This document shows positions 3,666 to 36,630 of a stretch of DNA of 64,000 nt, one piece after another. The notes under the pieces were generated by a model. It was not told the origin of the DNA, did not search any database, and saw only the letters and a list, made by a program, of their open reading frames with translations. The first letter of the stretch is position 1, and every line of letters starts with the position of its first letter. Location: NCBI RefSeq assembly GCF_054482525.1, contig NZ_CM137006.1; one strand, given 5' to 3'. Made by a program: the position numbers and the translations under genes.

Positions 3666-3690
3666 ATTCAAAAATACAGAGGAATAAGAC

Positions 3691-4812: not shown

Positions 4813-4814
4813 GC

Positions 4815-5780: not shown

Positions 5781-5782
5781 TG

Positions 5783-7482: not shown

Positions 7483-7484
7483 TT

Positions 7485-8921: not shown

Positions 8922-9022
8922 CAGTTGAATAATCAACCGGATTAATTCTCCGGTAAATAACGACAAAAACAAAATTGGCCGTTTCGGTCAGGGCCAACTA
9001 TTGCCTGAAAAAGGGTAACGAC

Positions 9023-10393: not shown

Positions 10394-10447
10394 TGTCGGA
10401 TCTTCCCTTACCCCACTGCGGGTAAGGGGCTAATAACAGGAACAACG

Positions 10448-11842: not shown

Positions 11843-11843
11843 T

Positions 11844-13322: not shown

Positions 13323-13393
13323 GTTGTTGTTTTAGGCACTGGCAATAAAAACAACAACATAACCTCACCTGGCATCAAATTTATGAGGAAAAA

Positions 13394-15891: not shown

Positions 15892-15901
15892 AGGAGAACG
15901 C

Positions 15902-17296
15902 ATGCCATTTAAAAAACTCTCCCGACGCACCTTCCTGACGGCAAGCTCGGCGCTTGCCTTCCTCCATACCCCTTTCGCTCGCGCACTTCCCGACCAACAG
16001 AGCGTTAACATTAACGACTACAACCCTCACGACTGGATCGCCTCATTTAAACAAGCCTTCAGCGAAGGGCAAACAGTCGTCGTGCCTGCCGGATTGGTTT
16101 GCGACAATATCAACACCGGCATCTTCATTCCTCCTGGCAAAACGTTACACATCCTTGGAAGCCTGCGCGGCAACGGCAGAGGGCGATTTGTTTTACAGGA
16201 CGGCAGCCAGGTGACAGGGGAGGAGGGCGGCAGTATGCATAACATCACCCTGGATGTGCGTGGTTCTGACTGCACCATCAAAGGGTTGGCGATGAGCGGC
16301 TTTGGCCCGGTAACGCAGATTTATATCGGCGGCAAAAACAAACGGGTCATGCGCAACCTGACCATCGATAACTTGACCGTTAGCCACGCTAATTACGCCA
16401 TTTTACGCCAGGGATTTCATAACCAGATTATCGGTGCCAACATCACCAACTGTAAGTTCAGCGACTTACAGGGCGACGCCATTGAATGGAACGTGGCAAT
16501 TAACGACAGTGATATTTTGATTTCCGACCACATCATCGAGCGCATCAACTGTACTAACGGAAAAATCAACTGGGGCATTGGCATAGGCCTTGCGGGAAGT
16601 ACCTACAATAACAATTACCCGGAAGACCAGACAGTGAAAAATTTTGTTGTGGCGAATATCACGGGATCGGATTGTCGGCAGTTGATACATGTTGAAAATG
16701 GTAAACATTTTGTTATTCGTAATATCAAAGCCCGCAATATCACACCGGATTTCAGTAAGAAAGCAGGTATTGATAACGCCACAGTTGCTATTTATGGTTG
16801 TGACAACTTTGTGATTGATAATATTGAAATGATTAATAGTGCCGGGATGTTAATCGGCTATGGGGTAATTAAAGGCAAATATCTCTCGATACCGCAGAAT
16901 TTCCGGGTGAATAATATTCAACTGGATAATACTCATCTTGCTTATAAATTGCGCGGCATTCAAATCTCCGCCGGGAATGCTGTCTCCTTTGTGGCGCTGA
17001 CTAACATTGAGATGAAGCGTGCGTCGCTGGAGTTACACAACAAACCGCAACATCTTTTTATGCGTAATATCAATGTGATGCAGGAATCCTCAGTTGGACC
17101 CGCATTGAGCATGAACTTCGACATGCGCAAAGACGTACGAGGTGTCTTTATGGCGAAAAAAGAAACACTGCTATCTCTTGCAAATGTTCATGCGGTGAAT
17201 GAAAGAGGGCAAAGCTCTGTCGATATCGACAGGATTAATCACCATATTGTTAATGTGGAAAAGATTAACTTTAGATTGCCGGAACGGAGGGAGTAG
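15902..17296 (+). CDS. wcaM: Colanic acid biosynthesis protein WcaM (secreted, beta-helix-like)
   Basis: 464 aa; N-terminal signal/Tat-like ([13 protein letters not shown]); last gene of wca cluster by synteny. Confidence 0.88.
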
Positions 17297-17453
17297 ATTT
17301 GCGACCATTCATAAACTTACTGGATATAATGTTCTAAAAGATTATAATCCTCACACTAACTGTTAAAGCTGGGGCTGGGCAGCATTGACTACTCAGGGAA
17401 GGTACTCATCTTTATCTTGTGTTTCTTACGTAACAACCAGACTAAAGTGATTT

Positions 17454-18449
17454 ATGAACGATAACGTTTTGCTCATAGGAGCTTCCGGATTCGTAGGAAC
17501 CCGACTACTTGAAACGGCAATTGCTGACTTTAATATCAAGAACCTGGACAAACAGCAGAGCCACTTTTATCCAGAAATCACACAGATTGGCGATGTTCGT
17601 GATCAACAGACACTCGACCAGGCGTTAGCCGGTTTTGACACTGTTGTACTACTGGCAGCGGAACACCGCGATGATGTCAGTCCTACTTCTCTCTATTATG
17701 ATGTCAACGTTCAGGGTACCCGCAATGTACTGGCGGCCATGGAAAAAAATGGCGTTAAAAATATCATCTTTACCAGTTCCGTTGCTGTTTATGGTTTGAA
17801 CAAACACAACCCTGACGAAAACCATCCACACGACCCTTTCAACCACTACGGCAAAAGTAAGTGGCAGGCAGAGGAGGTGCTGCGTGAATGGTATAACAAA
17901 GCACCAACAGAACGTTCATTAACCATCATCCGTCCTACCGTTATCTTCGGTGAACGCAACCGCGGTAACGTCTATAACTTGCTGAAACAGATCGCTGGCG
18001 GCAAGTTTATGATGGTGGGCGCAGGGACTAACTATAAGTCCATGGCTTATGTTGGAAACATTGTTGAGTTTATTAAGTACAAACTGAAGAATGTTGCCGC
18101 AGGTTATGAGGTTTATAACTACGTTGATAAGCCAGACCTGAACATGAACCAGTTGGTTGCTGAAGTTGAACAAAGCCTGAACAAAAAGATCCCTTCTATG
18201 CACTTGCCTTACCCACTAGGAATGCTGGGTGGATATTGCTTTGATATCCTGAGCAAAATTACGGGCAAAAAATACGCTGTCAGCTCTGTGCGCGTGAAAA
18301 AATTCTGCGCAACTACACAGTTTGACGCAACGAAAGTGCATTCTTCAGGTTTTGTGGCACCGTATACGCTGTCGCAAGGTCTGGATCGAACTCTGCAGTA
18401 TGAATTCGTCCATGCCAAAAAAGACGACATAACGTTTGTTTCTGAGTAA
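17454..18449 (+). CDS. gne: NAD-dependent sugar 4-epimerase (Gne-type; UDP-GlcNAc/GalNAc-related epimerase)
   Basis: 331 aa; N-terminal Rossmann GASGFVG; SDR-like YGKSK; located between wcaM and galF, where K-12 as I recall it has no gene but other E. coli lineages carry gne. Confidence 0.75.
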   Translation: MNDNVLLIGASGFVGTRLLETAIADFNIKNLDKQQSHFYPEITQIGDVRDQQTLDQALAGFDTVVLLAAEHRDDVSPTSLYYDVNVQGTRNVLAAMEKNGVKNIIFTSSVAVYGLNKHNPDENHPHDPFNHYGKSKWQAEEVLREWYNKAPTERSLTIIRPTVIFGERNRGNVYNLLKQIAGGKFMMVGAGTNYKSMAYVGNIVEFIKYKLKNVAAGYEVYNYVDKPDLNMNQLVAEVEQSLNKKIPSMHLPYPLGMLGGYCFDILSKITGKKYAVSSVRVKKFCATTQFDATKVHSSGFVAPYTLSQGLDRTLQYEFVHAKKDDITFVSE

Positions 18450-18691
18450 TGCAGACGAGTCAGAGAAAAAAGGACCAGGTTAGACTACGATTATTCGGAA
18501 AGAGGTACTGATTAAATTATCAGTATGTGGATTTCCGAGTAATCCGAGTAACCCAGATGCTGATGGTGTGTAGTGTTATCGTAAGGTTTAATCAAAGTTA
18601 TGCGGAGCTAAGCTTTGGTATATAGCCATAACGTTTGGCTAACCTATGGCAATAATTTACGCACTATCAGCCACTTAGAGGTAGGAAAAGA

Positions 18692-19585
18692 ATGACGAAT
18701 TTAAAAGCAGTTATACCGGTAGCAGGTCTTGGGATGCATATGTTGCCTGCCACTAAGGCGATACCCAAAGAGATGCTACCGATCGTCGACAAGCCAATGA
18801 TTCAGTACATTGTTGACGAGATTGTGGCTGCAGGGATCAAAGAAATCCTCCTGGTAACTCATGCGTCCAAGAACGCGGTCGAAAACCACTTCGACACCTC
18901 TTATGAATTAGAATCTCTCCTTGAACAGCGCGTGAAGCGTCAGCTGCTGGCGGAAGTGCAGTCGATCTGTCCACCGGGAGTGACCATTATGAACGTGCGT
19001 CAGGGCGAACCTTTAGGTTTAGGCCACTCCATTTTGTGTGCGCGACCCGCCATTGGCGACAACCCATTTGTCGTGGTACTGCCAGACGTAGTGATCGACG
19101 ACGCCAGCGCCGACCCGCTGCGCTACAACCTTGCTGCCATGATTGCGCGCTTCAATGAAACGGGCCGTAGCCAGGTGCTGGCAAAACGTATGCCGGGTGA
19201 CCTTTCTGAATACTCCGTTATTCAGACCAAAGAGCCGCTGGATCGTGAAGGCAAAGTCAGCCGCATTGTTGAATTTATCGAAAAACCGGATCAGCCGCAG
19301 ACGCTGGACTCAGACATCATGGCCGTTGGTCGCTATGTGCTTTCTGCGGATATTTGGCCGGAACTTGAACGCACTCAACCTGGTGCATGGGGGCGTATTC
19401 AGCTGACTGATGCCATTGCTGAACTGGCGAAAAAACAGTCCGTTGATGCAATGCTGATGACCGGTGACAGTTACGATTGTGGCAAGAAAATGGGCTATAT
19501 GCAGGCGTTTGTGAAGTATGGACTGCGCAACCTGAAAGAAGGGGCGAAGTTCCGTAAAGGTATTGAAAAGCTGTTAAGCGAATAA
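18692..19585 (+). CDS. galF: UTP-glucose-1-phosphate uridylyltransferase regulatory subunit GalF
   Basis: 297 aa; nucleotidyltransferase motif [23 protein letters not shown]; flanks O-antigen cluster as expected. Confidence 0.95.
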
Positions 19586-19838
19586 TGAAAATCTGACCGG
19601 ATGTAACGGTTGATAAGAAAATTATAACGGCGGTGAGGATTCGTGGGGCTAATTGTACTCATTGCCTCATTCTTTCTTTATACCGTTCTAAATATGAGTA
19701 ACAATAACTTTTCAATAGGCATTTATTGTGGGAGGCTGAGATTTTCTCCATCTCTGAAGCGATTTGGTAAAACGTTCAGAGTTAAGCTTTTCGAACTAAC
19801 CATAACGGTTAATGCTAGTTACAACTAGGACATGCATG

Positions 19839-19877
19839 CAGTACGCTGGTAGCTGTTGAGCCAGGGGCGGTAGCGTG
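19839..19877 (+). promoter_or_regulatory. JUMPstart element with ops site (GGCGGTAGCGTG) for RfaH-dependent antitermination
   Basis: Sequence cagtacgctggtagctgttgagccaggggcggtagcgtg read directly; 39-bp JUMPstart consensus ending in the 12-bp ops motif, ~80 bp upstream of the first O-antigen gene. Confidence 0.85.
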
Positions 19878-19957
19878 AATTAAATGTTTATCCCATATTA
19901 CTTAACAAATTGTAAACTATCGTGCAAAATAAGACTTGTTAAGTACGTAGGCTCGTT

Positions 19958-21193
19958 ATGTTAAAAAACATCATCTATTTATTAAGCGTTCAAGGTGGCA
20001 ATTATATATTTCCATTGGTCACACTGCCTTATCTTGTCAGGATCCTTGAACCTACAGGATACGGGATATATGGGTATAGTTTTGCTGTGGTCCAATATTT
20101 TATATTATTTATTGATTACGGATTTAACTACTCAGCGCCCAAAATCATATCAATATCAAGGGAAAATACTGATTCCATAAGTAAAGTTTTTTGGAATGTA
20201 ACGTTTATCAAAATAATTGCAGCATCTCTTGGTTTGTTAATTATTTATTTAATTTCGGAATTGAATATCATTGATTACCAAATTAAATTTATCATTCTTG
20301 CATACATATCTGTCGTAGGAAATTTAATATATCCAGTATGGTTTTTTCAAGGGCTGGAAAAAATGTTAGGAATAGCGATAAGTATGTTTTCCGCACGCTT
20401 ACTTACACTATGTTTAACATTTTTATTGGTTAAAAGTGAAAAGGATCTTGGTATAGCGATAACAATACAATCATCAATAACAGTTATTGCAGGTATAATA
20501 TCTACATATTTTTTATTTTCTCTTAAAAAAATAATATGGGTACCACCATCCTTATCCAAAATGAAAGAGTTAATTTATGATGGATGGCATTACTTCATTT
20601 CCTCTGCAGCAATAAGCCTTTATACTACTAGTTCAACAATAATATTAGGTGCATTATCAGGAACAACTGCAGTGGGATATTTTATCGCTGCAGATAAAAT
20701 TAGGCTTGCACTACAAGGCGTTATTGGTCCTATAACCCAAGCTGTTTTTCCTAGAGTAACTTATATAATGAAGGATAATCATGACGATGGACTATTATTA
20801 GCCAGGAAAGTGTTTCGATGGCAATTTTCACTGATGTTCGTACTTTCCATATTTCTTTACTTTTTTGCAGACGATATAATTTTAATCATGTATGGAAAAA
20901 CGTATCATGAATCTTTAGAAATACTCAAGGTTTTAGCTTTTACTCCAGCAATAGTTACGGTAAGTAATTATATTGCAATTTTAGTAATGATCCCTATTGG
21001 TATGAAAAAAGAATTTACAAAAATTATTACTACCAGTGGATTAATAGGCCTACTGATAATTACTTATTTGACTAATGAATACTCAGGAGTTGGTACAGCA
21101 ATAGGAGTTATTTCAACTGAGTTTATAATAATGGCGAGATTTTACTTTTTGATTAAGAAAACAAATAAATTAAATAATTTAAATTTATTGTAG
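19958..21193 (+). CDS. wzx: O-antigen flippase Wzx
   Basis: 411 aa, ~12 predicted TM segments, polysaccharide biosynthesis protein family N-terminus; AT-rich; first gene after JUMPstart. Confidence 0.75.
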   Translation: MLKNIIYLLSVQGGNYIFPLVTLPYLVRILEPTGYGIYGYSFAVVQYFILFIDYGFNYSAPKIISISRENTDSISKVFWNVTFIKIIAASLGLLIIYLISELNIIDYQIKFIILAYISVVGNLIYPVWFFQGLEKMLGIAISMFSARLLTLCLTFLLVKSEKDLGIAITIQSSITVIAGIISTYFLFSLKKIIWVPPSLSKMKELIYDGWHYFISSAAISLYTTSSTIILGALSGTTAVGYFIAADKIRLALQGVIGPITQAVFPRVTYIMKDNHDDGLLLARKVFRWQFSLMFVLSIFLYFFADDIILIMYGKTYHESLEILKVLAFTPAIVTVSNYIAILVMIPIGMKKEFTKIITTSGLIGLLIITYLTNEYSGVGTAIGVISTEFIIMARFYFLIKKTNKLNNLNLL

Positions 21194-21201
21194 GGCTAAC
21201 A

Positions 21202-21927
21202 ATGAATAAACCAACTTTAACAATAGTTACCGTTGTGTACAATGGCGAAATGTATATCGAAGATACTATAAAAAGTGTCTTATCACAAAACTGCAATGAT
21301 GACATTGAATATATTATAATTGATGGTGCATCAACGGATAATACTCTAAATATTGTTAATTCTTACAAAAATGAAATTTCATATATCATTTCTGAAAATG
21401 ATAATGGTATATATGATGCAATGAATAAAGGTGTGTTAAAAGCATCTGGAAATTATATAGGATTTATAAACGCTGATGATTTTTATAATAAAGATGTATT
21501 ATGTCAAGTAATAAAAGTAATGAAAGAAAATAAATATGATGTTATTTATGGAAATATGTCTTTGGTAGAGGCTGATAGCTTGGATGTTATTCAGGTCCGG
21601 AGGCCTAAAGACTGGAAACTACATATAGATATGAATTTAAGCCATCCGGCCACATTTATTAGAAAAGATATCCACAGAGAAAATTTATTTAATACTAGCT
21701 ATAAAATTGCTTCTGATTATGATCTTTTGCTAAAATTGAAGAAACAAGGTTATATCTTTCATTATATTGATAAAAATATCTCTTCGATGAGAAATGCCGG
21801 CCTTAGCGCTAAAAATGTAAAATTAGCATTGGAGGAAGCGAGACAAATCCGAAAGAAAAGAAACGGGAAATTATATGCGGCGTTAGCAGATATTTACCTA
21901 TTTATGAGAAAAGTTATAAAAAGATGA
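21202..21927 (+). CDS. Glycosyltransferase family 2 (WcaE-like)
   Basis: 241 aa; motifs IIDGASTDNT and [11 protein letters not shown] shared with WcaE (2355..3101). Confidence 0.8.
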   Translation: MNKPTLTIVTVVYNGEMYIEDTIKSVLSQNCNDDIEYIIIDGASTDNTLNIVNSYKNEISYIISENDNGIYDAMNKGVLKASGNYIGFINADDFYNKDVLCQVIKVMKENKYDVIYGNMSLVEADSLDVIQVRRPKDWKLHIDMNLSHPATFIRKDIHRENLFNTSYKIASDYDLLLKLKKQGYIFHYIDKNISSMRNAGLSAKNVKLALEEARQIRKKRNGKLYAALADIYLFMRKVIKR

Positions 21928-23159
21928 TTAATAGAAACATAAAAATTAGTGCTTCATTTATTTCAATAATTTATTTGCCTTTTGCTTTATTATTAGCAAT
22001 GATTGAAATGATTAATGGGGCCAGATGGAGTGTTTATGTATGTTCATTTATGCTAGGGGTACTAGCATTTTTGTTAATACCTTATGAAAATTGGGATTTG
22101 ACTAGGCATTATGAAACATATTTATATGTTAGTCAAACATCACTAAACAAAGTTTTTGAAAATAGTGACAATAGATATATTACAATAAATACTGTTATTT
22201 ATTTATTTAAATCTTTAGGAATAAAAAAAGAATTTTTACCTTTTTTTTCAACATTTTTATCATATATTTTTTATTTTAATATATATGTTAATCACATTAA
22301 AAAATACAATCCGGAATTATCTCATAGATGTATATATTTATATATTCTAATAAGCGTAATCCCATTTTTTGCTATAGCTAGTTCATTGCGGCAATATCTT
22401 GCATTTAGTATTATGCTTTATATGATCATACAGTATTTCACCAGTGAAAATAATAGGTATAAGTCACAAAAAATTATATTCTCTGCAATTATTTCATGTT
22501 GTATTCATCCCAGCGCAATACTATTGCTAGGTGTTTTTTTTGTTAGCAAATTAATAAGACTTAACAAAACAATATTGTATTTAATAATATTAGTTCTAAT
22601 CCTTAACCATGATGGATTAATATCTTCTTTGCTATTTCAATTGATTAGGCCATTATTGGAAAGCTTAGGTTTTTACTTTCCCGAATATATGGACTCTGTA
22701 ACCATAGGCATAAGCAATAGCTTGCTGAGCACTAATGAATATATCTTGAATAAGATCATATTACCGTCAGTGTTTTTTATTTTTACTTTTATCTATTTAA
22801 TTTTATTTAATAAAAAAATGACGAGGCAAGAGTCACAAATCAAAAATTTTTGCAGTTTACTTCTTTTGCTGATATGCCTTTTATCGTTATCGCCTGATTT
22901 ATTTTATCGATTTTCCATTTTCTGGGTGTTATTATATAGTTATATATTTTTCTCCTACGATATTAATAAAATTAGCAAACTATGTAAGCATCTGATCTTC
23001 TTAATACTCATTACCGCATGTTCAATCATAAATTTGGCACAGGCAAATATGGGTAAAGATATTATTTATGTGTCTTGGTGCGATATATTGTATAAGCCCT
23101 CATTATTCCTATTCAATAAAGAAGTTAAATCAGCAGAATATATAAGAGTGAGTCAATAA
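21924..23159 (+). CDS. wzy: O-antigen polymerase Wzy (putative)
   Basis: 411 aa, very hydrophobic, multiple TM helices, no soluble-enzyme motifs, very AT-rich; typical of Wzy in O-antigen clusters. Confidence 0.6.
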   Translation: MINRNIKISASFISIIYLPFALLLAMIEMINGARWSVYVCSFMLGVLAFLLIPYENWDLTRHYETYLYVSQTSLNKVFENSDNRYITINTVIYLFKSLGIKKEFLPFFSTFLSYIFYFNIYVNHIKKYNPELSHRCIYLYILISVIPFFAIASSLRQYLAFSIMLYMIIQYFTSENNRYKSQKIIFSAIISCCIHPSAILLLGVFFVSKLIRLNKTILYLIILVLILNHDGLISSLLFQLIRPLLESLGFYFPEYMDSVTIGISNSLLSTNEYILNKIILPSVFFIFTFIYLILFNKKMTRQESQIKNFCSLLLLLICLLSLSPDLFYRFSIFWVLLYSYIFFSYDINKISKLCKHLIFLILITACSIINLAQANMGKDIIYVSWCDILYKPSLFLFNKEVKSAEYIRVSQ

Positions 23160-23160
23160 A

Positions 23161-24228
23161 ATGTCCATTGGAGTCTTTAAGCTGTATGAAAATAAAATAG
23201 GTGGCACTGAGAAAGCAGTTGAAAATCTAATTGATATATTAACTAAAAACAGCCTACAAGTGAGATGTTTTTCAGCAATAAACGCACAAGAGATACAAGT
23301 TAGAGAAGATAATCGGAAAACCTACTTATTCCAAGACAATACTGCATATGAAGAAAGCAAATTAAGGTTTTACATTAAATATTTGTTTTTTTTGAGTGCC
23401 AAAAGTAAAGACCTTGAATTAATAATTTCCACGGATATAGCTACATCATCATTATTGTTATTGATTGGTTTTTTTCGGTGTAATAAGAATAAAATTATTT
23501 GCTGGGAACATTATCCATTTGACAAGAATAGTATTTTTTGGAGAAAAGTATTTAAATTTCTTTTGTCTCTTAATAAAAAAGCTGTAGTAGTTTGTAATTC
23601 TCACAAGGAAAAAGATAAGTTTACTTTTTGTAAAAGGGTTGTAATTATACCAAATTCAATCAAAACGCAAAAATATAAGCGCATACATCAAGGAAAAGAA
23701 ACTCTTGATTTGATTTATATTGGTCGGATTGTTAAAGATAAAGGAGTTGAAAGGTTAATTAATGCAGTAATAAATCACCCGTCTACAAAAAAGTATGTTT
23801 TACACATTGTAGGAGGTGGTCAAGAGCTGGAGTATCTCAAATCTAAATATAAGAATAACAACCAAATACACTTTCATGGACCGAGTTTAAACACAGATGT
23901 TTTTTTGGCAAAAAGTGATGTTTTTGTATCCGGTTCATACTTTGAATGTTTTCCTGTTACAATACTTGAAGCTATGTCCTACGGATTACCTGTAATTTCA
24001 ATGGATATATCTGGAGGGACAAGTAGCGTGATTTCTTCATCGGGTGGCGGATTTGTGTGTCAATCTCAAATTGAATTTCAGGAAAAACTAACTTACTTTG
24101 AAGATAATGTTAAACGAACCGAACACGGAAATGCAGGATTCCTATTCGTGAATAGACATTATACAGAAGAAATAGTTAGTGCTCAGTGGATGAGTTTGAT
24201 CAATCGAGCCAATAGTCAAGAAAATTAA
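23161..24228 (+). CDS. Glycosyltransferase family 4 (GT1 fold)
   Basis: 355 aa; C-terminal motif FPVTILEAMSYGLPVIS typical of retaining GT4 enzymes. Confidence 0.75.
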   Translation: MSIGVFKLYENKIGGTEKAVENLIDILTKNSLQVRCFSAINAQEIQVREDNRKTYLFQDNTAYEESKLRFYIKYLFFLSAKSKDLELIISTDIATSSLLLLIGFFRCNKNKIICWEHYPFDKNSIFWRKVFKFLLSLNKKAVVVCNSHKEKDKFTFCKRVVIIPNSIKTQKYKRIHQGKETLDLIYIGRIVKDKGVERLINAVINHPSTKKYVLHIVGGGQELEYLKSKYKNNNQIHFHGPSLNTDVFLAKSDVFVSGSYFECFPVTILEAMSYGLPVISMDISGGTSSVISSSGGGFVCQSQIEFQEKLTYFEDNVKRTEHGNAGFLFVNRHYTEEIVSAQWMSLINRANSQEN

Positions 24229-24248
24229 GGTATTGGAGCTATTAAAGT

Positions 24249-25265
24249 ATGAGCATACTTGTGACTGGTGGGGCTGGCTATATTGGCTCACATGCTATAT
24301 TAACTTTATTGCAAAATGGATATGATGTTATATCGCTAGATAATTATTGCAATTCCTCTCCAAAATCTCTAGAACGAGTAGAGGAAATTTGCTTATCTAA
24401 GATAAAAAAATTACGTGGTGATATTAGAGATAGACATATATTAAAAAATATCTTTTCAAAATATAATGTTTCTACTGTAATGCATTTTGCGGGTTTAAAA
24501 TCTGTTAACGAGTCCATTAAAAAACCATTAGAATATTACGACACAAATCTTTTGGGGACTCTAATATTACTTGATGAAATGCAGAAAGCGAATATTTCTA
24601 ATCTAATTTTTAGTTCGTCTGCTACTGTCTATGGCAATCCTCATTATGTTCCAATATCTGAAAAACACCCTGTCGGTGAGGTGATCAATCCGTACGGTCG
24701 TTCAAAGTTTATGGTGGAACATATATTGCGTGATTTTTGTAACGCGAATAGCGACGCAAATATCACAATACTAAGATATTTTAATCCTGTAGGTGCTCAT
24801 AAGACTGGATTAATTGGAGAAGATCCTTTAGGAACTCCTAATAACCTGTTTCCCTATGTTGCGCAAGTCGCAATTGGAAAATTACCCTATCTAAATGTTT
24901 TTGGTAATAAATATATGACAAAAGATGGAACAGGTGTAAGAGATTATATCCATGTAGTCGATTTAGTTGAGGGGCATCTTGCCGCTTTAAAAAATCTCAA
25001 TAGAAACCGGGGGCTTAAAGTTTTTAATTTAGGCACTGGTCAAGGTTATAGTGTGTTAGATATCATCGACGCTTTTAAACTGGAAACAGGACGCGATATA
25101 CCTTTCCGTATCGTTTCTGAGCGAAATGGAGATGTGGCTGAATGTTGGTCCGATCCTTCCTTAGCAAACGAGCAGCTAAGTTGGGTTGCTAAAAGGACTC
25201 TTAATAATATGGTGGAAGATGCATGGAGATGGCAAACAATGAATCCAAATGGATATAAAGAGTAA
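24249..25265 (+). CDS. UDP-glucose/UDP-galactose 4-epimerase (GalE family) encoded inside the O-antigen cluster
   Basis: 338 aa; TGGAGYIGSH Rossmann motif, SSSATVYG and YGRSK catalytic motifs of GalE-type epimerases. Confidence 0.85.
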   Translation: MSILVTGGAGYIGSHAILTLLQNGYDVISLDNYCNSSPKSLERVEEICLSKIKKLRGDIRDRHILKNIFSKYNVSTVMHFAGLKSVNESIKKPLEYYDTNLLGTLILLDEMQKANISNLIFSSSATVYGNPHYVPISEKHPVGEVINPYGRSKFMVEHILRDFCNANSDANITILRYFNPVGAHKTGLIGEDPLGTPNNLFPYVAQVAIGKLPYLNVFGNKYMTKDGTGVRDYIHVVDLVEGHLAALKNLNRNRGLKVFNLGTGQGYSVLDIIDAFKLETGRDIPFRIVSERNGDVAECWSDPSLANEQLSWVAKRTLNNMVEDAWRWQTMNPNGYKE

Positions 25266-25333
25266 ATTGAAACAATTATAATCATCCATTTCATTGCTTA
25301 CTGTATTGTTATCTATATATATGAAAACAAAAA

Positions 25334-26341
25334 ATGAAAATATTATATGATGGGATTGTGAAAAGTTTACAATCATATGGTGGTATCACTGTATACTTTG
25401 AAGAAATCATTAAGAGATTAAAAAATGACGAATACAAATTCATTCAATTTAATGATAAAAATGAAAATCACAATGATGATCTCCATCGGCCATGCCGGTT
25501 TTTAGAACGATATAGATGTTTTGAAGCATTAAAAAGTGATTCAGATTACAGTATATTTCATTCTACATATTATCGGGTTCCGAAAGATGGGGAATATGCG
25601 GTTGTGACCACGGTCCACGATTTCACATATGAATTGTATATGAAAGGACTTCGGCGCAATGTTCATAGCTTACAAAAAAGATGGGCTGTGAAACATAGCG
25701 ATGCAATCATTTGTGTCTCTAATAATACAGCCAAGGATTTAATTAATTTCTTTAAGGTTGATGAAAAAAAGATACATGTTATTCATAATGGTGTATCGGA
25801 AGATTATAGACACTTAAATCTAGAAAAAGAAAATTTTGTGCTTTTTGTCGGTGCTCGTTCAGGATATAAAAATTTTGAGCTTGCAGTTAAAGCCGTTTCT
25901 AAACTTTTTGATACTAATCTTAAAATAGTCGGCGGAGGTGGTTTAAATAAAGCAGAAATGAAGTTACTATCTGAATATCTTCCAGAAAGATTCCAGTACT
26001 TAGGGAAGGTATCAAATGAAAAACTAAATATATTATATAATTCGGCTTATTGCTTAATCTATCCTTCAGAATATGAAGGGTTTGGAATTCCCTTGCTTGA
26101 GGCTATGCGAACTGGCTGTCCTGTGATAGCCGTAAATAGATCATCAATACCCGAGGTTGTGGGGGATAGTGCGATTTTAGTCGAAGAAGTATCAATTGAA
26201 AGTTTATTCTCAGCTTTATTAAGTGTAGAAGCTAACGCTAATGAATTAAAAAATAAAGGATTAGCGCAATCTAATAAATTTTCATGGGGGAAGTGTTTCT
26301 CCGAAACATATAATCTATATAAATCACTATCTAAGTTTTGA
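25334..26341 (+). CDS. Glycosyltransferase family 4
   Basis: 335 aa; [21 protein letters not shown] motif (E-x7-E). Confidence 0.78.
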
Positions 26342-26351
26342 GAGGTTATTT

Positions 26352-27473
26352 ATGTGTAAGAAAGCTTTAATTACAGGAATTACCGGGCAAGATGGTTCCT
26401 ACTTGGCAGAATTTCTGCTTAAAAAAGGCTATGAGGTTCATGGAATAAAACGTCGATCTTCCTTGTTTAATACTGACCGTATTGATCATATATATCAAGA
26501 CCCACACCATCGTAATTTAAAATTACAACTTCATTATGGTGATTTAACAGATACTTCTAATTTGACTCGGATATTATCTGAAGTTCAACCTGATGAAGTT
26601 TATAATCTTGGCGCAATGAGTCACGTAGCTGTTTCCTTCGAATCCCCAGAATATACAGCTGATGTTGATGCTATAGGTACTTTACGATTATTGGAAGCTA
26701 TTCGTTTTTTGGGATTAGAAAAAAAAACCCGATTTTATCAGGCGTCAACCTCTGAATTGTATGGATTAGTTCAGGAAGTTCCACAAAAAGAGACAACGCC
26801 GTTCTATCCTCGTTCACCTTATGCCGTAGCTAAACTGTATGCATATTGGATCACTGTAAACTATCGTGAGTCTTATGGAATGTATGCATGTAACGGTATT
26901 TTGTTCAATCATGAATCCCCACGTCGTGGGGAAACGTTTGTAACACGTAAAATCACACGTGCTATAGCTAATATATCGCAGGGAATAGAAAAATGCTTAT
27001 ATCTTGGCAACATGGATTCTTTACGCGATTGGGGGCATGCGAAAGATTATGTTCGTATGCAATGGATGATGCTTCAACAAGACCAGCCAGAAGACTTTGT
27101 TATTGCCACCGGCAAACAAATATCTGTACGTGAATTTGTCCGTATGTCTGCTAAAGAAGTTGGACTTGAACTTGAGTTTTCCGGTACTGGTGTTGATGAG
27201 ATTGCATTTGTTGTAAATAAAACATCAGATTGCGCCGTTGGTGTTAATATTGGTGATGTTATTGTTCGCGTTGACCCTCGTTATTTTCGACCAGCAGAAG
27301 TTGAAACTCTTCTTGGTGATCCAACAAAAGCAAAAAATGTCTTGGGTTGGGAGCCAGAGATTACAGTTGAAGAAATGTGTGCAGAAATGGTGGCTAGTGA
27401 TTTAGAAAAAGCTAAACAGCATGCACTTCTTAAAAGCCATGGTTTTGACGTGGCAGTCTCTTTGGAGCGTTAA
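26352..27473 (+). CDS. gmd: GDP-mannose 4,6-dehydratase (O-antigen copy, low GC)
   Basis: 373 aa; protein highly similar to colanic acid Gmd (3691..4812) but with divergent, AT-richer codon usage. Confidence 0.93.
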
Positions 27474-27476
27474 AGT

Positions 27477-28442
27477 ATGACCAAGAAGCGAATTTTTGTG
27501 GCTGGACATCGTGGGATGGTTGGTTCTGCTATTTGTCGTCAATTATTAGCACGTAATGATGTTGAGTTAATTGTCAAAACTCACAAAGAACTCGATTTGA
27601 CAGTTCAAAAGGATGTTGAATGTTTTTTTGAGCAAGAGAGAATAGATCAGGTTTACCTTGCAGCAGCAAAAGTAGGAGGAATTCATGCTAATAACACTTT
27701 TCCAGCTGAATTTATTTATCAGAACCTTCTTATTGAAAGCAATATTATTCACTCATCTTACAAAGCGGGCATAAAGAAACTATTATTCTTAGGGTCAAGT
27801 TGTATCTATCCAAAGTTTGCAGAACAGCCAATGAAAGAATCTGCACTTTTGACGGGAACTCTTGAGCCTACTAATGAGCCTTATGCTATTTCCAAAATAG
27901 CAGGTATAAAGCTATGTGAATCTTATAATCGCCAATATGGATGTGATTATCGCAGTGTAATGCCTACTAACTTATATGGTATGAATGATAATTTTCATCC
28001 CAATAACTCACATGTAATTCCAGCGCTTATGCGGCGTTTTCATGAAGCAAAGGAACTTGGTTTAAATGAAGTGGTTGTCTGGGGAACGGGAACTCCAAAA
28101 CGCGAGTTTTTATATGTTGATGATATGGCCGCTGCATCAGTATATGTGATGGAGCTTGATGATGAAATTTATAAAAAAAATACTCAACCAATGTTATCTC
28201 ATATTAACGTAGGTACTGGTGTTGATTGTTCCATACGTGAAATGGCAGAAACAATGGCTTTAGTTGTTGGCTATGATGGAAAAATTGTTTTTGATATAAC
28301 AAAACCAGATGGTTCGCCTCGTAAACTTATGGATGTTACACGCCTTGAGAATTTGGGTTGGAAATATCGTTATAATTTAAAACAAGGACTAGAATTAACA
28401 TATAAATGGTTTATAAATAATCTTGACTCATTTAGGAGTTAA
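27477..28442 (+). CDS. fcl: GDP-L-fucose synthase (O-antigen copy)
   Basis: 321 aa; paralogue of 4815..5780 with the same motifs. Confidence 0.93.
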
Positions 28443-28444
28443 TA

Positions 28445-28900
28445 TTGAACAAGAGATTAGAAACAGAGTTATTTAAATCAATAGTTGAACATACTCCACT
28501 AATCTCGATAGACCTTATTATAAGAAACGAAGATGGTAAGGCGCTGCTTGGTCAGCGCCTTAATCGTCCAGCACAAAATTATTGGTTTGTGCCGGGGGGA
28601 CGGATTCTTAAAGATGAGTCTTTCGAGAACGCATTCAAAAGAGTTACTTTAGAAGAATTGGGTGTTCAAATTAGCATTAATGAAGCAAAATTTCTTGGGA
28701 TTTATGAACATTTCTACAGCGACAATTTTTCTGGGACTTGTTTTTCAACTCATTATGTCGTACACGGATATGAGATTAGTTTGATGCCACATCAAATTAA
28801 CTATCCAACACTACAACATAGTACTTACAATTGGTTCGATATAGCCGAATTGTTAGCTAATTCCTCAGTTCATCAGTACACAAAAAATTATTTTAAGTGA
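28445..28900 (+). CDS. gmm: GDP-mannose mannosyl hydrolase (O-antigen copy; apparent TTG start)
   Basis: 151 aa; aligns with colanic acid Gmm (NRPAQ.YWFVPGG); no in-frame ATG near the start, TTG at 28445 just after the fcl stop. Confidence 0.8.
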   Translation: MNKRLETELFKSIVEHTPLISIDLIIRNEDGKALLGQRLNRPAQNYWFVPGGRILKDESFENAFKRVTLEELGVQISINEAKFLGIYEHFYSDNFSGTCFSTHYVVHGYEISLMPHQINYPTLQHSTYNWFDIAELLANSSVHQYTKNYFK

Positions 28901-28911
28901 AGGTTATTTAT

Positions 28912-30297
28912 ATGCTACTTCCTGTTGTAATGGCCGGTGGTTCTGGAACTAGATTGTGGCCACTTTCTCGAACACTATATCCGAAGCAATTCCTATCGTT
29001 AACTAGTCGTTTGACTATGCTACAAGAGACCTTAAGAAGGCTTGAAGGGGTTGAACATCGTCCTGCTCTGGTTATTTGTAATGAAGTTCATCGTTTTATC
29101 GTTGCAGAACAGATGCGTAATGTAAATTTAGCGAATAGTGGCATTTTACTAGAGCCGATAGGTCGTAATACAGCCCCCGCAGTTGCGCTTGCTGCTCTTA
29201 AAGCGATTTCATCAGGTGAGGATCCAATACTGCTTGTACTAGCAGCCGATCATGAAATACAAGACCAAAAGCGCTTTATATCGTCAATATTGGCTGCAAA
29301 AGAATTTGCAGAGGAAGGTAAGCTGGTAACTTTTGGTATTGTGCCAACCAAACCCGAAACTGGATATGGCTACATAAAAACCGGAGAAAATTTAAATGAA
29401 TATGGTTTTAAAGTTTCTGCTTTTGTTGAAAAGCCTGAGCTAGATGTGGCCAAAAAATATCTTGAAGATGGAGATTATCTTTGGAATAGTGGAATATTCA
29501 TGTTTAGGGCTTCTGTGTTTATTGATGAGTTGAATAAATTTAGACCAGACATACTAAAAATATGCCAACAAGCATTGAAGTCCTCTACACAAGATCTTGA
29601 TTTTATCCGTATAGATAATGACTCATTTAGTTGTTGCCCTGAAGAATCCATTGATTACGCTGTTATGGAGAAAACAACAGAGGCTGTGGTAGTTCCATTA
29701 AATGCCCACTGGAGCGATGTTGGTTCTTGGTCTGCATTATGGGAAATTAGCAGAAAAGATAAAAGTGGAAATGCAATTAGAGGAGATGTATTAATTCATG
29801 ATTCTTCTGACAGTTATCTTTACTCACAACATAGATTAATTGGTGTAGTAGGAGTTAAAGATTTAGTAGTTGTTGAAACTAAAGATGCTATTCTCGTTGC
29901 GCATAAAGATAAAGTTCAACAGGTAAAAAATATTGTAGAAAAACTTAAAGTTAATAACCGTACGGAATATCTGCAGCATCGTGAAATATTTAGGCCATGG
30001 GGCAGTCATGACTCTATAGCGGAAGGATCTCGATTTGAGGTTAAACATGTCGTTATTCATCCTGGACATAAAACTGCTAAACAGATTCATTACCATCGTA
30101 CTGAGCATTGGATTGTTGTTTCTGGAACAGCAAAAGTCCATTATGAAGATGAAATATTTCTTGTTTCTGAAAATGAATCAACTTATATACCAATAGGTGT
30201 ACCTCATTTTATTGAGAATCCAGGAAAGATCCCTTTGGAGATTATTGAGGTACGTTCAGGTGTCTACTTGGATGAAGATGATGTTGTTAGAATCTAA
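28912..30297 (+). CDS. manC: Mannose-1-phosphate guanylyltransferase (O-antigen copy)
   Basis: ORF 28897..30297; start chosen at [16 protein letters not shown] (ATG 28912) by alignment with CpsB; low-GC paralogue. Confidence 0.9.
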   Translation: MLLPVVMAGGSGTRLWPLSRTLYPKQFLSLTSRLTMLQETLRRLEGVEHRPALVICNEVHRFIVAEQMRNVNLANSGILLEPIGRNTAPAVALAALKAISSGEDPILLVLAADHEIQDQKRFISSILAAKEFAEEGKLVTFGIVPTKPETGYGYIKTGENLNEYGFKVSAFVEKPELDVAKKYLEDGDYLWNSGIFMFRASVFIDELNKFRPDILKICQQALKSSTQDLDFIRIDNDSFSCCPEESIDYAVMEKTTEAVVVPLNAHWSDVGSWSALWEISRKDKSGNAIRGDVLIHDSSDSYLYSQHRLIGVVGVKDLVVVETKDAILVAHKDKVQQVKNIVEKLKVNNRTEYLQHREIFRPWGSHDSIAEGSRFEVKHVVIHPGHKTAKQIHYHRTEHWIVVSGTAKVHYEDEIFLVSENESTYIPIGVPHFIENPGKIPLEIIEVRSGVYLDEDDVVRI

Positions 30298-30368
30298 AAT
30301 GATGCTGGATACTAATGCAACATTATTATTCGTAATGCTGTACTGACGTTATTTAATTATGATTATTA

Positions 30369-31127
30369 TTGGATGTTAAAATGAAAGTCAGTATTATTAC
30401 AGTGACTTATAATAGTGAAAAGACTTTAAGGGATACTTTAGAGTCAATAGAGTTGCAAACCTATAAAGATATAGAGTATATAATTATTGATGGTGGTTCT
30501 ACAGATAATACGTTAAAACTAATTAACGAAGTATCAACAAGAGTAACCAAATGTCTATCAGAAAGCGATAACGGTATCTATGATGCTTTAAATAAAGGTA
30601 TAAATTTATCTACGGGAGATATTATTGGATTCGTTCATTCTGATGACCTTTTAGCAAGACCTGATATTATTGAAACTATTGTAAGCCGTTTCCATGAGAC
30701 AAAAGCGGATGTTGTATACGGTGATTTGGTTTTTTTCGAAAAAAACCAAACTGATATAATCAAACGATACTGGCGTAGTGGTCCTTTTAAACGTTCTAAG
30801 CTATCATTAGGCTGGGCACCACCGCATCCATCTTTCTATATGAGGAGGGAATTATATAAAGACGATGGATATTTTGATTTATCCTATAGGATTGCTGCAG
30901 ACTATGATCAGATGGTCAGGATTTTGAAACGTGATGATATTAAAGTTATTTATGTTCCTCAAGTATTTGTAAAGATGAGATTGGGTGGGGAAAGTACCAG
31001 AATTGATAACGCGATATCAAGTACAAAGGAAATTGTAGAAGTTATGAAAAACCATAATGTAAATTGGAAAATTGCTATCATTATCAGAAAAATCTCAAAA
31101 CTAATGCAATTGTTTGCGCATAAATAA
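30369..31127 (+). CDS. Glycosyltransferase family 2 (WcaE-like), inserted between manC and manB
   Basis: 252 aa; IIDGGSTDNT and DNGIYDALNKG motifs; start may be the internal Met at 30381. Confidence 0.8.
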   Translation: MDVKMKVSIITVTYNSEKTLRDTLESIELQTYKDIEYIIIDGGSTDNTLKLINEVSTRVTKCLSESDNGIYDALNKGINLSTGDIIGFVHSDDLLARPDIIETIVSRFHETKADVVYGDLVFFEKNQTDIIKRYWRSGPFKRSKLSLGWAPPHPSFYMRRELYKDDGYFDLSYRIAADYDQMVRILKRDDIKVIYVPQVFVKMRLGGESTRIDNAISSTKEIVEVMKNHNVNWKIAIIIRKISKLMQLFAHK

Positions 31128-31151
31128 TTTTATTATTGGTAAGGTTTTTAT

Positions 31152-32522
31152 ATGAAAAAATTAACCTGCTTTAAAGCCTATGATATTCGCGGGAAATTAG
31201 GCGAAGAACTGAATGAAGATATTGCGTGGCGCATTGGTCGCGCCTATGGCGAATTTCTCAAACCGAAAACCATTGTGTTAGGCGGTGACGTCCGCCTCAC
31301 CAGCGAAACCTTAAAACTGGCGCTGGCGAGAGGTTTACAGGATGCGGGCGTCGATGTGCTGGATATCGGCATGTCCGGCACCGAAGAGATCTATTTCGCC
31401 ACGTTCCATCTCGGCGTGGATGGCGGCATTGAAGTTACCGCCAGCCATAATCCGATGGATTATAACGGCATGAAGCTGGTTCGCGAGGGGGCTCGCCCGA
31501 TCAGCGGAGATACCGGACTGCGCGACGTCCAGCGTCTGGCTGAAGCCAACGACTTTCCTCCCGTCGATGAAACCAAACGCGGTCGCTATCAGCAAATCAA
31601 CCTGCGTGACGCTTACGTTGATCACCTGTTCGGTTATATCAATGTCAAAAACCTCACGCCGCTCAAGCTGGTGATCAACTCCGGGAACGGCGCAGCGGGT
31701 CCGGTGGTGGACGCTATCGAAGCCCGCTTTAAAGCCCTCGGCGCACCTGTGGAATTGATCAAAGTGCACAACACGCCGGACGGCAATTTCCCCAACGGTA
31801 TTCCTAACCCGCTGCTGCCGGAATGTCGCGACGACACCCGCAATGCGGTCATTAAACACGGCGCGGATATGGGCATTGCCTTTGATGGCGATTTTGACCG
31901 CTGTTTCCTGTTTGACGAAAAAGGGCAGTTTATCGAGGGCTACTACATTGTCGGCCTGCTGGCAGAAGCGTTCCTCGAAAAAAATCCCGGCGCGAAGATC
32001 ATCCACGATCCACGTCTCTCCTGGAATACCGTTGATGTGGTGACCGCCGCGGGCGGCACACCGGTGATGTCGAAAACCGGACACGCCTTTATTAAAGAAC
32101 GTATGCGCAAGGAAGACGCCATCTACGGTGGCGAAATGAGCGCCCACCACTATTTCCGTGATTTCGCTTACTGCGACAGCGGCATGATCCCGTGGCTGCT
32201 GGTCGCCGAACTGGTGTGTCTGAAAGGAAAAACGCTGGGCGAACTGGTGCGCGACCGGATGGCAGCGTTTCCGGCAAGCGGTGAGATCAACAGCAAACTG
32301 GCGCAACCCGCTGAGGCGATTAATCGCGTCGAACAGCATTTTAGCCGTGAGGCGCTGGCGGTGGATCGCACCGATGGCATCAGCATGACCTTTGCCGACT
32401 GGCGCTTTAACCTGCGCTCCTCCAACACCGAACCGGTGGTGCGCCTGAATGTGGAATCGCGCGGTGATGTGCCGCTGATGGAAGAAAAGACAAAACTTAT
32501 CCTTGCGTTATTGAACAAGTAA
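31152..32522 (+). CDS. manB: Phosphomannomutase (O-antigen copy; mosaic, near-identical to cpsG over most of its length)
   Basis: 456 aa; spot comparisons of 60-bp blocks against 9023..10393 show 0-3 mismatches each; only the last ~40-50 bp diverge. Confidence 0.93.
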
Positions 32523-32685: not shown

Positions 32686-34092
32686 ATGTCAAAGCAACAG
32701 ATCGGCGTCGTCGGTATGGCAGTGATGGGGCGCAACCTTGCGCTCAACATCGAAAGCCGTGGTTATACCGTCTCTATTTTCAACCGTTCCCGTGAAAAGA
32801 CGGAAGAAGTGATTGCCGAAAATCCAGGCAAGAAACTGGTTCCTTACTATACAGTGAAAGAGTTTGTTGAATCTCTGGAAACGCCTCGTCGCATCCTGTT
32901 AATGGTGAAAGCAGGTGCTGGCACGGATGCTGCTATTGATTCCCTCAAACCATACCTCGATAAAGGTGACATCATCATTGATGGTGGTAATACCTTCTTC
33001 CAGGACACCATTCGTCGTAACCGTGAGCTTTCTGCCGAAGGCTTTAACTTCATTGGTACCGGTGTTTCCGGTGGTGAAGAAGGCGCGCTGAAAGGTCCTT
33101 CCATTATGCCTGGTGGGCAGAAAGAAGCCTATGAACTGGTTGCACCGATCCTGACCAAAATCGCCGCAGTGGCTGAAGACGGTGAGCCATGCGTTACCTA
33201 TATCGGTGCCGATGGTGCAGGCCATTATGTGAAGATGGTTCACAACGGTATTGAATACGGCGATATGCAACTGATTGCTGAAGCCTATTCTCTGCTTAAA
33301 GGTGGCCTGAACCTCACCAACGAAGAACTGGCGCAGACCTTTACCGAGTGGAATAACGGTGAACTGAGCAGCTACCTGATCGACATCACCAAAGACATCT
33401 TCACTAAAAAAGATGAAGACGGTAACTACCTGGTTGATGTGATCCTGGATGAAGCGGCTAACAAAGGTACCGGTAAATGGACCAGCCAGAGCGCGCTGGA
33501 TCTCGGAGAACCGCTGTCGCTGATTACCGAGTCTGTGTTTGCACGTTATATCTCTTCTCTGAAAGATCAGCGCGTTGCCGCATCTAAAGTTCTCTCTGGT
33601 CCGCAAGCTCAGTCAGCAGGCGACAAGGCTGAGTTCATCGAAAAAGTTCGCCGTGCGCTGTATCTGGGCAAAATCGTTTCTTACGCTCAGGGCTTCTCTC
33701 AGCTGCGTGCTGCGTCTGAAGAATACAACTGGGATCTGAACTACGGCGAAATCGCGAAGATTTTCCGTGCTGGCTGCATCATCCGTGCGCAGTTCCTGCA
33801 GAAAATCACCGATGCATATGCCGAAAATCCGCAGATCGCTAACCTGCTGCTGGCTCCGTACTTCAAGCAAATTGCCGATGACTACCAGCAGGCGCTGCGT
33901 GATGTCGTTGCTTATGCAGTACAGAACGGTATCCCGGTTCCGACCTTCGCCGCTGCGGTTGCCTATTACGATAGCTACCGTGCCGCTGTTCTGCCTGCGA
34001 ACCTGATCCAGGCACAGCGTGACTATTTCGGTGCACATACTTATAAGCGCATTGATAAAGAAGGTGTGTTCCATACTGAATGGCTGGATTAA
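32686..34092 (+). CDS. gnd: 6-phosphogluconate dehydrogenase, decarboxylating
   Basis: 468 aa; N-terminal [19 protein letters not shown]-binding motif; canonical position after the O-antigen cluster. Confidence 0.96.
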
Positions 34093-35649: not shown

Positions 35650-36630
35650 ATGATGAGAGTAGAAAATAATAATGTTTCTGGGCAAAACCATGACCCGGAA
35701 CAGATTGATTTGATTGATTTACTAATGCAGTTGTGGCGTGGCAAGATGACAATCATCATCTCTGTCATTGTTGCTATTGCCCTGGCTATAGGGTATCTGG
35801 CCGTTGCCAAAGAAAAGTGGACTTCCACAGCTATCGTTACTCAACCTGATGTGGGGCAAATCGCTGGCTATAACAATGCCATGAATGTTATCTATGGTCA
35901 GGCTGCACCGAAAGTGTCAGATTTGCAGGAGACGTTGATTGGTCGCTTCAGTTCTGCCTTCTCTGCATTAGCAGAAACGCTGGATAATCAGGAAGAACCA
36001 GAAAAACTTACCATCGAACCTTCTGTTAAGAACCAGCAATTACCATTGACTGTTTCTTATGTTGGGCAAACTGCAGAGGGCGCACAAATGAAGTTGGCCC
36101 AATACATTCAGCAAGTTGACGATAAAGTGAATCAAGAGCTAGAAAAGGATCTCAAAGACAACATTGCTCTGGGACGGAAAAACTTGCAGGACTCTTTAAG
36201 AACCCAGGAAGTGGTTGCGCAGGAGCAGAAAGATCTGCGCATCCGTCAGATTCAGGAAGCGTTGCAGTATGCGAATCAGGCGCAGGTGACAAAACCACAG
36301 GTTCAGCAGACTGAAGATGTGACGCAAGATACGTTGTTCCTTTTGGGGAGCGAAGCGCTGGAGTCGATGATTAAGCATGAGGCGACCCGTCCGTTGGTGT
36401 TCTCACCAAACTACTATCAGACTCGTCAAAACCTGCTGGATATCGAAAACTTAAAGGTTGATGATCTTGATATTCATGCTTACCGCTATGTGATGAAACC
36501 GACGTTACCTATTCGTCGCGATAGCCCGAAAAAGGCAATTACATTGATTCTGGCGGTGCTGCTGGGCGGCATGGTTGGCGCGGGGATTGTGTTGGGGCGT
36601 AACGCTCTGCGTAATTACAACGCGAAGTAA
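35650..36630 (+). CDS. wzzB: O-antigen chain-length determinant WzzB (polysaccharide co-polymerase)
   Basis: ORF 35617..36630; start taken at MRVENNNVSGQ (326 aa); N- and C-terminal TM segments with coiled-coil periplasmic domain. Confidence 0.9.
   Translation: MMRVENNNVSGQNHDPEQIDLIDLLMQLWRGKMTIIISVIVAIALAIGYLAVAKEKWTSTAIVTQPDVGQIAGYNNAMNVIYGQAAPKVSDLQETLIGRFSSAFSALAETLDNQEEPEKLTIEPSVKNQQLPLTVSYVGQTAEGAQMKLAQYIQQVDDKVNQELEKDLKDNIALGRKNLQDSLRTQEVVAQEQKDLRIRQIQEALQYANQAQVTKPQVQQTEDVTQDTLFLLGSEALESMIKHEATRPLVFSPNYYQTRQNLLDIENLKVDDLDIHAYRYVMKPTLPIRRDSPKKAITLILAVLLGGMVGAGIVLGRNALRNYNAK

Follow-up and report, generated by a model that had tools for sequence, protein, structure and literature searches.

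Assignment of an AT-rich, Wzx/Wzy-dependent O-antigen gene cluster to Escherichia coli O11

Organization of the galF-gnd locus

The O-antigen gene cluster described here lies between galF and gnd, at positions 19586-32522 of a 64-kb window (the whole stretch of DNA that was analysed, 64,000 bp of contig NZ_CM137006.1, assembly GCF_054482525.1). The list of open reading frames (ORFs) places twelve tightly packed, co-oriented genes in this interval, all intact and all on the plus strand, in the order wzx, a family 2 glycosyltransferase gene (GT2a), wzy, a family 4 glycosyltransferase gene (GT4a), a GalE-family epimerase gene, a second family 4 gene (GT4b), gmd, fcl, gmm, manC, a second family 2 gene (GT2b) and manB. 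This order from wzx to manB had been proposed in a first-pass annotation made from the sequence alone, and it agrees with the ORF list, the NCBIfam and Pfam matches and the RefSeq names. The cluster is framed by galF as the conserved 5' flank (18692-19585, plus strand; NCBIfam TIGR01105, 689 bits against a cut-off of 659) and by gnd as the conserved 3' flank (32686-34092, plus strand; NF006765, 775 bits).

The base composition of most of the cluster differs from that of its surroundings. Positions 19586-31151 (11,566 bp) have a GC content of 33.2%, with 500-bp windows ranging from 0.24 to 0.41, as compared with 52.6% on the colanic-acid side (1-17296), 55.1% in manB and 47.5% over the whole 64-kb window; the gene with the lowest GC content of the cluster is wzy, with 26%. 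The low-GC block of about 11.5 kb described in the first-pass annotation is thus recovered in 500-bp GC windows, whereas its proposed extension to position 32522 is not, since the block stops before manB. The 3' end of the imported block is located between GT2b and manB. At the opposite side, GC values of 0.41-0.47 are reached ahead of galF, in the 3' portion of wcaM and over the gnu gene (16500-18500), and galF itself is back at about 0.53, so the 5' compositional boundary is stepped, not sharp.

A JUMPstart element (19839-19877, plus strand; Rfam RF01707, 57 bits against a gathering score of 35, E = 5.9e-11) is found 81 bp upstream of wzx. It includes the ops site GGCGGTAG (19866-19873), which was read directly from the sequence and has one exact match only within the 64-kb window. 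Scans with promoter and terminator consensus sequences at both ends of the cluster gave scores no better than those of shuffled sequences, and terminators were not found by them. Downstream of gnd, wzzB encodes the O-antigen chain-length regulator (35653-36630, plus strand, RefSeq coordinates; NF012015, 609 bits against a cut-off of 267); it is the partner of Wzy, though it lies outside 19586-32522. Together with wzzB, the flanking genes wcaL, wcaM and ugd also score above the NCBIfam curated cut-offs. The locus thereby combines Wzx, a polytopic Wzy, a nearby wzzB and JUMPstart/ops, all belonging to the Wzx/Wzy pathway, and no ABC transporter genes (wzm/wzt) occur among the twelve cluster genes according to NCBIfam and the RefSeq annotation.

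Serogroup assignment

Over its 12,937 bp, the interval 19586-32522 shows two mismatches to its closest match, E. coli PCN033 (NZ_CP006632), an identity that rounds to 100.0%, and collinearity with this genome extends over all 64 kb of the window, with 8 single-nucleotide polymorphisms (SNPs) in total. Agglutination tests typed strain PCN033 as O11, and its authors matched the cluster to that of the O11 type strain G1207 (HQ388393; PMC4578781). The wzx of the window is identical to that of PCN033, and wzy differs from it by one residue. When a match over at least 80% of the 12,937-bp query length was required, the cluster was found in 65 of 5,426 complete E. coli genomes, the best matches having 99.9-100% identity. 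All matching genomes carry the RefSeq product names 'O11 family O-antigen flippase' and 'O11 family O-antigen polymerase', and the exact proteins of the window occur in public collections under O11 names. The cluster is situated at the galF-gnd location and has wzx and wzy at least about 97-98% like those of an O11 strain, the link being made through PCN033 and the RefSeq names.

Because of the near-identity to the serotyped strain PCN033 and the 'O11 family' names of wzx and wzy, we assign the locus with high confidence to the E. coli O11 (genotype Og11) O-antigen cluster, a classical Wzx/Wzy-dependent cluster between galF and gnd. The serogroup, which the first-pass annotation had left unassigned, can accordingly be named as O11/Og11 from the PCN033 match and the RefSeq names. 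Its prediction of L-fucose in the O unit is consistent with this assignment, as wzx and wzy match O11, whose cluster has a complete GDP-L-fucose pathway, and not a serogroup that lacks fucose.

The cluster is already known, published and catalogued, and is not new. It represents a textbook horizontally acquired O-antigen cluster, and O11 has been sequenced, structurally characterised and included in routine in-silico serotyping. The O11 cluster and its polysaccharide were reportedly described by Li and co-workers in 2011 jointly with Salmonella O16.

Two further records concern the distribution and integrity of O11 loci. A full-length (411 aa) 'O11 family O-antigen flippase' is on record from Escherichia fergusonii, which suggests that the O11 cluster is not confined to E. 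coli. In E. coli STLEFF_29 (NZ_CP058879), an IS1A element (6767-8665 of its O11 locus) disrupts gmd; the colanic-acid gmd may compensate for this loss, or the strain may produce an O antigen without fucose or be rough.

Flippase and polymerase

The O-unit flippase gene wzx (O11 type; 19958-21193, plus strand) gives a Pfam Polysacc_synt match of 4.7e-57, and the O-antigen polymerase gene wzy (O11 type, EpsG family; 21924-23159, plus strand) gives a Pfam EpsG family match of 7.5e-12. No match was obtained in NCBIfam for either Wzx or Wzy, as expected for hypervariable proteins. At least eight strongly hydrophobic segments were found in Wzx, with a grand average of hydropathy (GRAVY) of 0.83, and at least eight such 19-residue segments (Kyte-Doolittle) in Wzy, whose GRAVY is +0.71; by comparison, the values for every glycosyltransferase and pathway enzyme of the cluster are negative.

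The AlphaFold2 model of Wzy, computed with a 63-sequence alignment, is all-helical and has a mean predicted local distance difference test (pLDDT) score of 93.8 and a predicted template modelling (pTM) score of 0.93. According to this model, Wzy is a polytopic membrane protein with a GT-C fold. Hydropathy, Pfam and model thus agree with the earlier description of the protein as a polytopic membrane polymerase as opposed to a soluble fold. A Foldseek search of the model against the PDB gave no significant match; according to a 2025 review, no experimental Wzy structure was available at that time.

Few relatives of Wzy were retrieved: only four in a word-indexed search of 5.8 billion proteins and 80 in an exhaustive HMMER scan of 1.84 billion representatives, as is usual for Wzy. 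The invariant positions of the family are P53, D58, H195 and R329, with Y114, R156 and Y255 near-invariant; position 124 is not conserved.

GDP-fucose pathway genes and manB

The genes for the GDP-L-fucose pathway lie on the plus strand and were identified by NCBIfam profiles. They comprise gmd (26352-27473; TIGR01472, 585 bits against a cut-off of 415), fcl for GDP-L-fucose synthase (27477-28442; NF047922, 538 bits against 500), gmm for GDP-mannose mannosyl hydrolase, with a TTG start (28445-28900, RefSeq coordinates; NF011963, 195 bits against 146), manC for mannose-1-phosphate guanylyltransferase/mannose-6-phosphate isomerase (28912-30297; TIGR01479, 740 bits against 373) and manB for phosphomannomutase (31152-32522; NF011943, 1053 bits). 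The start of manC at 28912 follows RefSeq, the longest ORF beginning at 28897.

The last of these genes has a different relationship to the colanic-acid locus of the same window. The O-antigen manB, which is named cpsG in RefSeq, shares 95.5% nucleotide and 97.4% amino acid identity with the colanic-acid cpsG (9023-10393, 22 kb upstream), although over its last ~70 nt the identity is only 73%; gmd, fcl, gmm and manC are just 49-70% identical to their colanic paralogues. This manB is a high-GC copy that lies outside the AT-rich imported block, and it looks like either a resident-type gene or the product of gene conversion between the two loci. An antisense ORF of 334 aa inside manB (31335-32339, minus strand), which has a counterpart in the colanic copy at 9206-10210, most likely arises from the high-GC codon pattern and does not represent a gene.

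Epimerases

Two epimerase genes are associated with the cluster. The first, gnu (17454-18449, plus strand), encodes an undecaprenyl-pyrophosphate (Und-PP)-N-acetylglucosamine (GlcNAc) 4-epimerase, as judged from the RefSeq product name in PCN033 and the position upstream of galF. Its matches to short-chain dehydrogenase/reductase (SDR) epimerase families are all below the NCBIfam cut-offs. The site just upstream of galF is a marker of gnu for O units that start with N-acetylgalactosamine (GalNAc), according to a review of E. coli O antigens and Cunneen et al. 2013, and an SDR epimerase with the corresponding RefSeq name is found at precisely this position. The gene, previously labelled gne, is hence better called gnu in view of its RefSeq name and of the way Cunneen et al. 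2013 name such genes. It lies outside 19586-32522 but would functionally be part of the system, because Gnu makes GalNAc the initiating sugar.

The second gene, within the cluster (24249-25265, plus strand), encodes a UDP-hexose 4-epimerase of the GalE family (NCBIfam PRK10675, 449 bits) and is a probable gne, whose product would act on UDP-GlcNAc/UDP-GalNAc and possibly on UDP-Glc/Gal too. Its nearest solved structure is human GALE (8.6e-127), followed by E. coli GalE (about 1e-114). The residue at the gatekeeper position is Cys299, which aligns with Cys307 of human GALE and is kept in the Salmonella O:16 orthologue. In E. coli GalE the gatekeeper is Tyr299, which excludes N-acetylated substrates. 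Since the cysteine gatekeeper resembles that of human GALE and not that of E. coli GalE, the enzyme is more likely to be of the Gne type and to supply UDP-GalNAc, possibly along with UDP-galactose (UDP-Gal). The occurrence of a GalE-clade gene inside an O-antigen cluster is regarded as a good sign of gne, while GalE and Gne are not yet reliably separable by sequence alone (Cunneen et al. 2013). The protein examined here belongs to the GalE clade, has a small gatekeeper residue and is encoded in a polysaccharide cluster. The first-pass description as a GalE-type epimerase consequently holds at the level of the family (PRK10675) but not of GalE itself, the Cys299 gatekeeper pointing to a probable Gne; the presence of a Gne-type gatekeeper in a protein labelled 'GalE' suggests an annotation correction.

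Glycosyltransferases

Two of the four glycosyltransferases, GT2a (21202-21927, plus strand) and GT2b (30381-31127, plus strand), are GT-A enzymes similar to WcaE and WrtF. The best PDB match is WrtF for both (9OMH series, about 1e-22 for GT2a; 9.8e-25 for GT2b). They are paralogous (36% identity, E = 4e-44), and their identity of 31% (GT2a) and 29% (GT2b) to the colanic-acid WcaE of the same window bears out their earlier description as WcaE-like. WrtF of R. tropici (PDB 9OMH) is a characterised alpha-L-fucosyltransferase of family GT2, and the known GT2 fucosyltransferases conserve Asp66, which hydrogen-bonds the guanine, His142, Asn143, the base Asp167 and Phe/Tyr191 (PMC12595478). In a MAFFT alignment, Asp66, Gly68, Ile69, His142 and Asp167 (WrtF numbering) are kept in both O11 enzymes and in both Salmonella orthologues, and Asn143 is replaced by Pro and Phe191 by Met in the same four proteins. 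The 'DxD' position reads NADD in GT2a and HSDD in GT2b.

Membership of the two enzymes in the fucosyltransferase group is only partly supported by the alignment. As the whole GDP-fucose pathway is encoded in the cluster and no other fucosyltransferase-type family was identified there, both probably use a GDP-sugar donor, most likely GDP-L-fucose, and are predicted to be alpha-L-fucosyltransferases. In the same alignment, the WcaE of the window (2355-3101) has Gln at the position of WrtF Asn143. Conservation of this residue in all five GT2 fucosyltransferases, WcaE among them, has been described (PMC12595478); the mismatch may come from the alignment or from an allele difference.

The remaining two, GT4a (23161-24228, plus strand) and GT4b (25334-26341, plus strand), are retaining GT-B glycosyltransferases and only distantly related to each other (24% identity) and to any characterised enzyme. 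In the PDB, GT4a matches WbnH (1.5e-11) and WaaB (2.6e-8), and GT4b matches MshA-like enzymes and WbnH (2.2e-11). Weak NCBIfam matches were obtained to WaaB, PglH and PglJ for GT4a and to a set including PglJ and PglH for GT4b. A reading of the GT4 donors and acceptors from these NCBIfam and PDB matches was rejected, as WbnH at about 1e-11 and WaaB at about 1e-8 are far below curated cut-offs.

Proposed assembly of the O unit

The gene content allows a pathway to be proposed. According to established pathway knowledge, WecA, which is encoded elsewhere, would make Und-PP-GlcNAc, and Gnu would epimerise it to Und-PP-GalNAc and so provide the first sugar. The products of manB, manC, gmd and fcl would make GDP-L-fucose, with Gmm trimming the GDP-mannose pool, and the GalE-family enzyme of the cluster, as a Gne-type epimerase, would supply UDP-GalNAc and/or UDP-Gal. 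The two inverting WcaE/WrtF-like GT2 enzymes probably add alpha-L-fucose (Fuc) from GDP-Fuc, and the two retaining GT4 enzymes probably add alpha-linked GalNAc, galactose (Gal) or glucose. The four cytoplasmic glycosyltransferases would thereby complete an O unit of probably five sugars, which is the simplest expectation because initiation by WecA/Gnu is followed by four transferases. An O unit of L-Fuc, GalNAc and possibly Gal would be consistent with the gene content.

The completed unit would be flipped across the inner membrane by Wzx and polymerised in the periplasm by the GT-C-fold Wzy, with WzzB setting the chain length; by general pathway knowledge, WaaL would then ligate the polymer to the lipid A-core. 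The long operon is presumably transcribed through from JUMPstart/ops (19839-19877) by antitermination that depends on RfaH, a role ascribed to this protein from what is known of such operons.

Missense variants and alternative readings

Within the cluster, the window differs from PCN033 at two positions only, each of them a missense change. The difference at 22293 changes Tyr124 of Wzy to His (Y124H), and that at 23480 changes Tyr107 of GT4a to Cys (Y107C). At either site, Tyr is present in other O11 alleles and Phe in Salmonella O16. The H124 allele of Wzy was found on a single contig, and the C107 allele of GT4a on 22 contigs. In the AlphaFold2 model, residue 124 of Wzy is located at the end of helix 104-128, beside a Lys-Lys pair, and the positive-inside rule would place it on the cytoplasmic side, away from periplasmic catalysis. 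Because position 124 is unconserved and stands at a helix end next to the Lys-Lys pair, we infer that Y124H is probably benign. An enrichment of SNPs in the cluster was considered and rejected, with 2 of the 8 SNPs of the window falling in 20% of its length.

Several points weigh against the assignment to O11 and the functional predictions attached to it. The connection to O11 runs through PCN033 and the RefSeq naming and not through HQ388393 itself, and both missense changes affect sites occupied by an aromatic residue in O11 as well as in Salmonella O16. GT2a and GT2b deviate at two of the five residues said to be conserved among GT2 fucosyltransferases and may use GDP-mannose or another donor instead, and the glycosyltransferase donors and acceptors, as well as the size and composition of the unit, are inferred from the genes. 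Finally, the sequence is a firmer guide to the genotype Og11 than to the serological phenotype, because the provisional group OX19 shares this genotype and its cluster, and yet the two do not cross-react: the clusters of OX19 and O11 are 98-99.9% identical, without cross-reaction of OX19 with O11 serum (DebRoy et al. 2016, PMC4732683).

On that account, and given that two missense changes separate it from PCN033, which was serotyped as O11, the cluster might specify OX19 and not O11, the serological split presumably resulting from a small change within the cluster or from a modification gene elsewhere. We regard this as improbable: collinearity with PCN033 and just 8 SNPs in 64 kb make the window a very close relative of a serotyped O11 strain, O11 cultures outnumber OX19 cultures 527 to 28 at the reference centre (PMC4732683), and position 124 is not conserved in the Wzy family. 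Slightly less probable again is an O11-type cluster that is functionally impaired, in which Y124H and Y107C would lead to a rough or semi-rough strain or to an altered polymer. That both in-cluster differences are non-synonymous, with Tyr in other O11 alleles or Phe in Salmonella at either position and H124 on one contig only, would fit such an impairment; but all twelve ORFs are intact, the SNP density of the cluster (2 in 12.9 kb) is like that of the rest of the window (8 in 64 kb), and the C107 allele circulates on 22 contigs. Position 124 of Wzy is, moreover, outside the invariant or near-invariant set and, by the positive-inside rule, would be cytoplasmic and away from catalysis.

There is a similarly slim chance that H124 of Wzy and the minority C107 allele of GT4a together affect the linkage made on polymerisation, or the way one sugar is added, strongly enough to alter the antigen. 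O118 and O151 are thought to be separated by a single Wzy substitution. If true, an antigen change through H124 and C107 could be relevant to why O11 and OX19 are serologically distinct, for which there is as yet no explanation. A new, unassigned serogroup, in turn, is hardly credible. The lack of an NCBIfam hidden Markov model match for wzx and wzy is in line with it, and otherwise only the inability of the first-pass annotation to name the serogroup; near-100% identity over 12.9 kb to genomes annotated as O11, with 65 complete genomes carrying the cluster, and the public record of the exact proteins under O11 names refute it.

Other features of the window

Beside the his operon leader, the PCN033 annotation places a yefM-yoeB type II toxin-antitoxin pair at about 44328-44830, which is its ordinary E. 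coli site. For the far end of the window, where it is collinear with PCN033 with 3 SNPs, the same annotation gives a tRNA-Asn gene and, immediately after it, a tyrosine recombinase/integrase gene at about 62092-63591; this combination would be the typical left edge of a genomic island at an asn tRNA gene. Further tRNA-Asn genes are annotated in PCN033 at about 60268-60343 and 57859-57934.

Comparison with known systems

A comparison of the O11 enzymes with characterised proteins reveals both shared and divergent features. The GT2 enzymes have in common with WrtF, WbdO and WcaE the guanine-binding motif 'D-x-G-I-Y-D-A-x-N-K-G', His142 and the catalytic base Asp167. By contrast, the 'DxD' position is GADD in WrtF and N(A/S)GD in WbdO (E. 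coli O157) and WcaE (colanic acid), as compared with NADD and HSDD in the O11 enzymes. Enzymes of the NXDD type have been flagged as worth studying (PMC12595478), and what forward value the present analysis has lies in the functional predictions for two WcaE/WrtF-like GT2 enzymes with NADD and HSDD donor-site motifs and for the epimerase with the Gne-type gatekeeper.

The Gne-type epimerases of E. coli O86 and Y. enterocolitica O:8 are likewise GalE-clade enzymes encoded within an O-antigen cluster, and human GALE, which accepts N-acetylated substrates, has the small gatekeeper Cys307 where the O11 enzyme has Cys299. Unlike the named Gne enzymes, the O11 protein is called GalE in RefSeq, and its Gne activity is predicted. 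Wzy shares only 6-14% sequence identity with the GT-C glycosyltransferases that use lipid-linked donors (ALG12, AftA/AftB, AglB/STT3/PglB, ArnT and the PMTs).

Outside E. coli, a related locus is found in Salmonella. The nearest relatives of Wzy outside E. coli belong to the serovars Saphra, Hull and Hvittingfoss (56% identity), which we take to be O:16 serovars of the Kauffmann-White scheme. The Salmonella O:16 locus, with gnu again upstream of galF, is collinear gene for gene with that of E. coli O11, in line with the pairing of O11 and O16 in the literature. It has the same Cys gatekeeper in the epimerase and the same active-site pattern in the GT2 enzymes, and it is likewise low in GC (0.28-0.39). 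The eleven AT-rich genes share 50-85% amino acid and 57-77% nucleotide identity with their O11 counterparts, the amino acid values being 50% for gmm, 56% for wzy and 56% for GT4a, which are the most diverged, 67% for wzx, 70% for GT4b and 85% for gmd. In comparison, the flanking gnu and galF reach 94% amino acid and 80-82% nucleotide identity (gnu 94.3% at the amino acid level), and manB has 88% amino acid identity. The stronger divergence of the AT-rich clusters relative to their flanks is what is commonly seen when two species share a cluster that is old and was inherited laterally.

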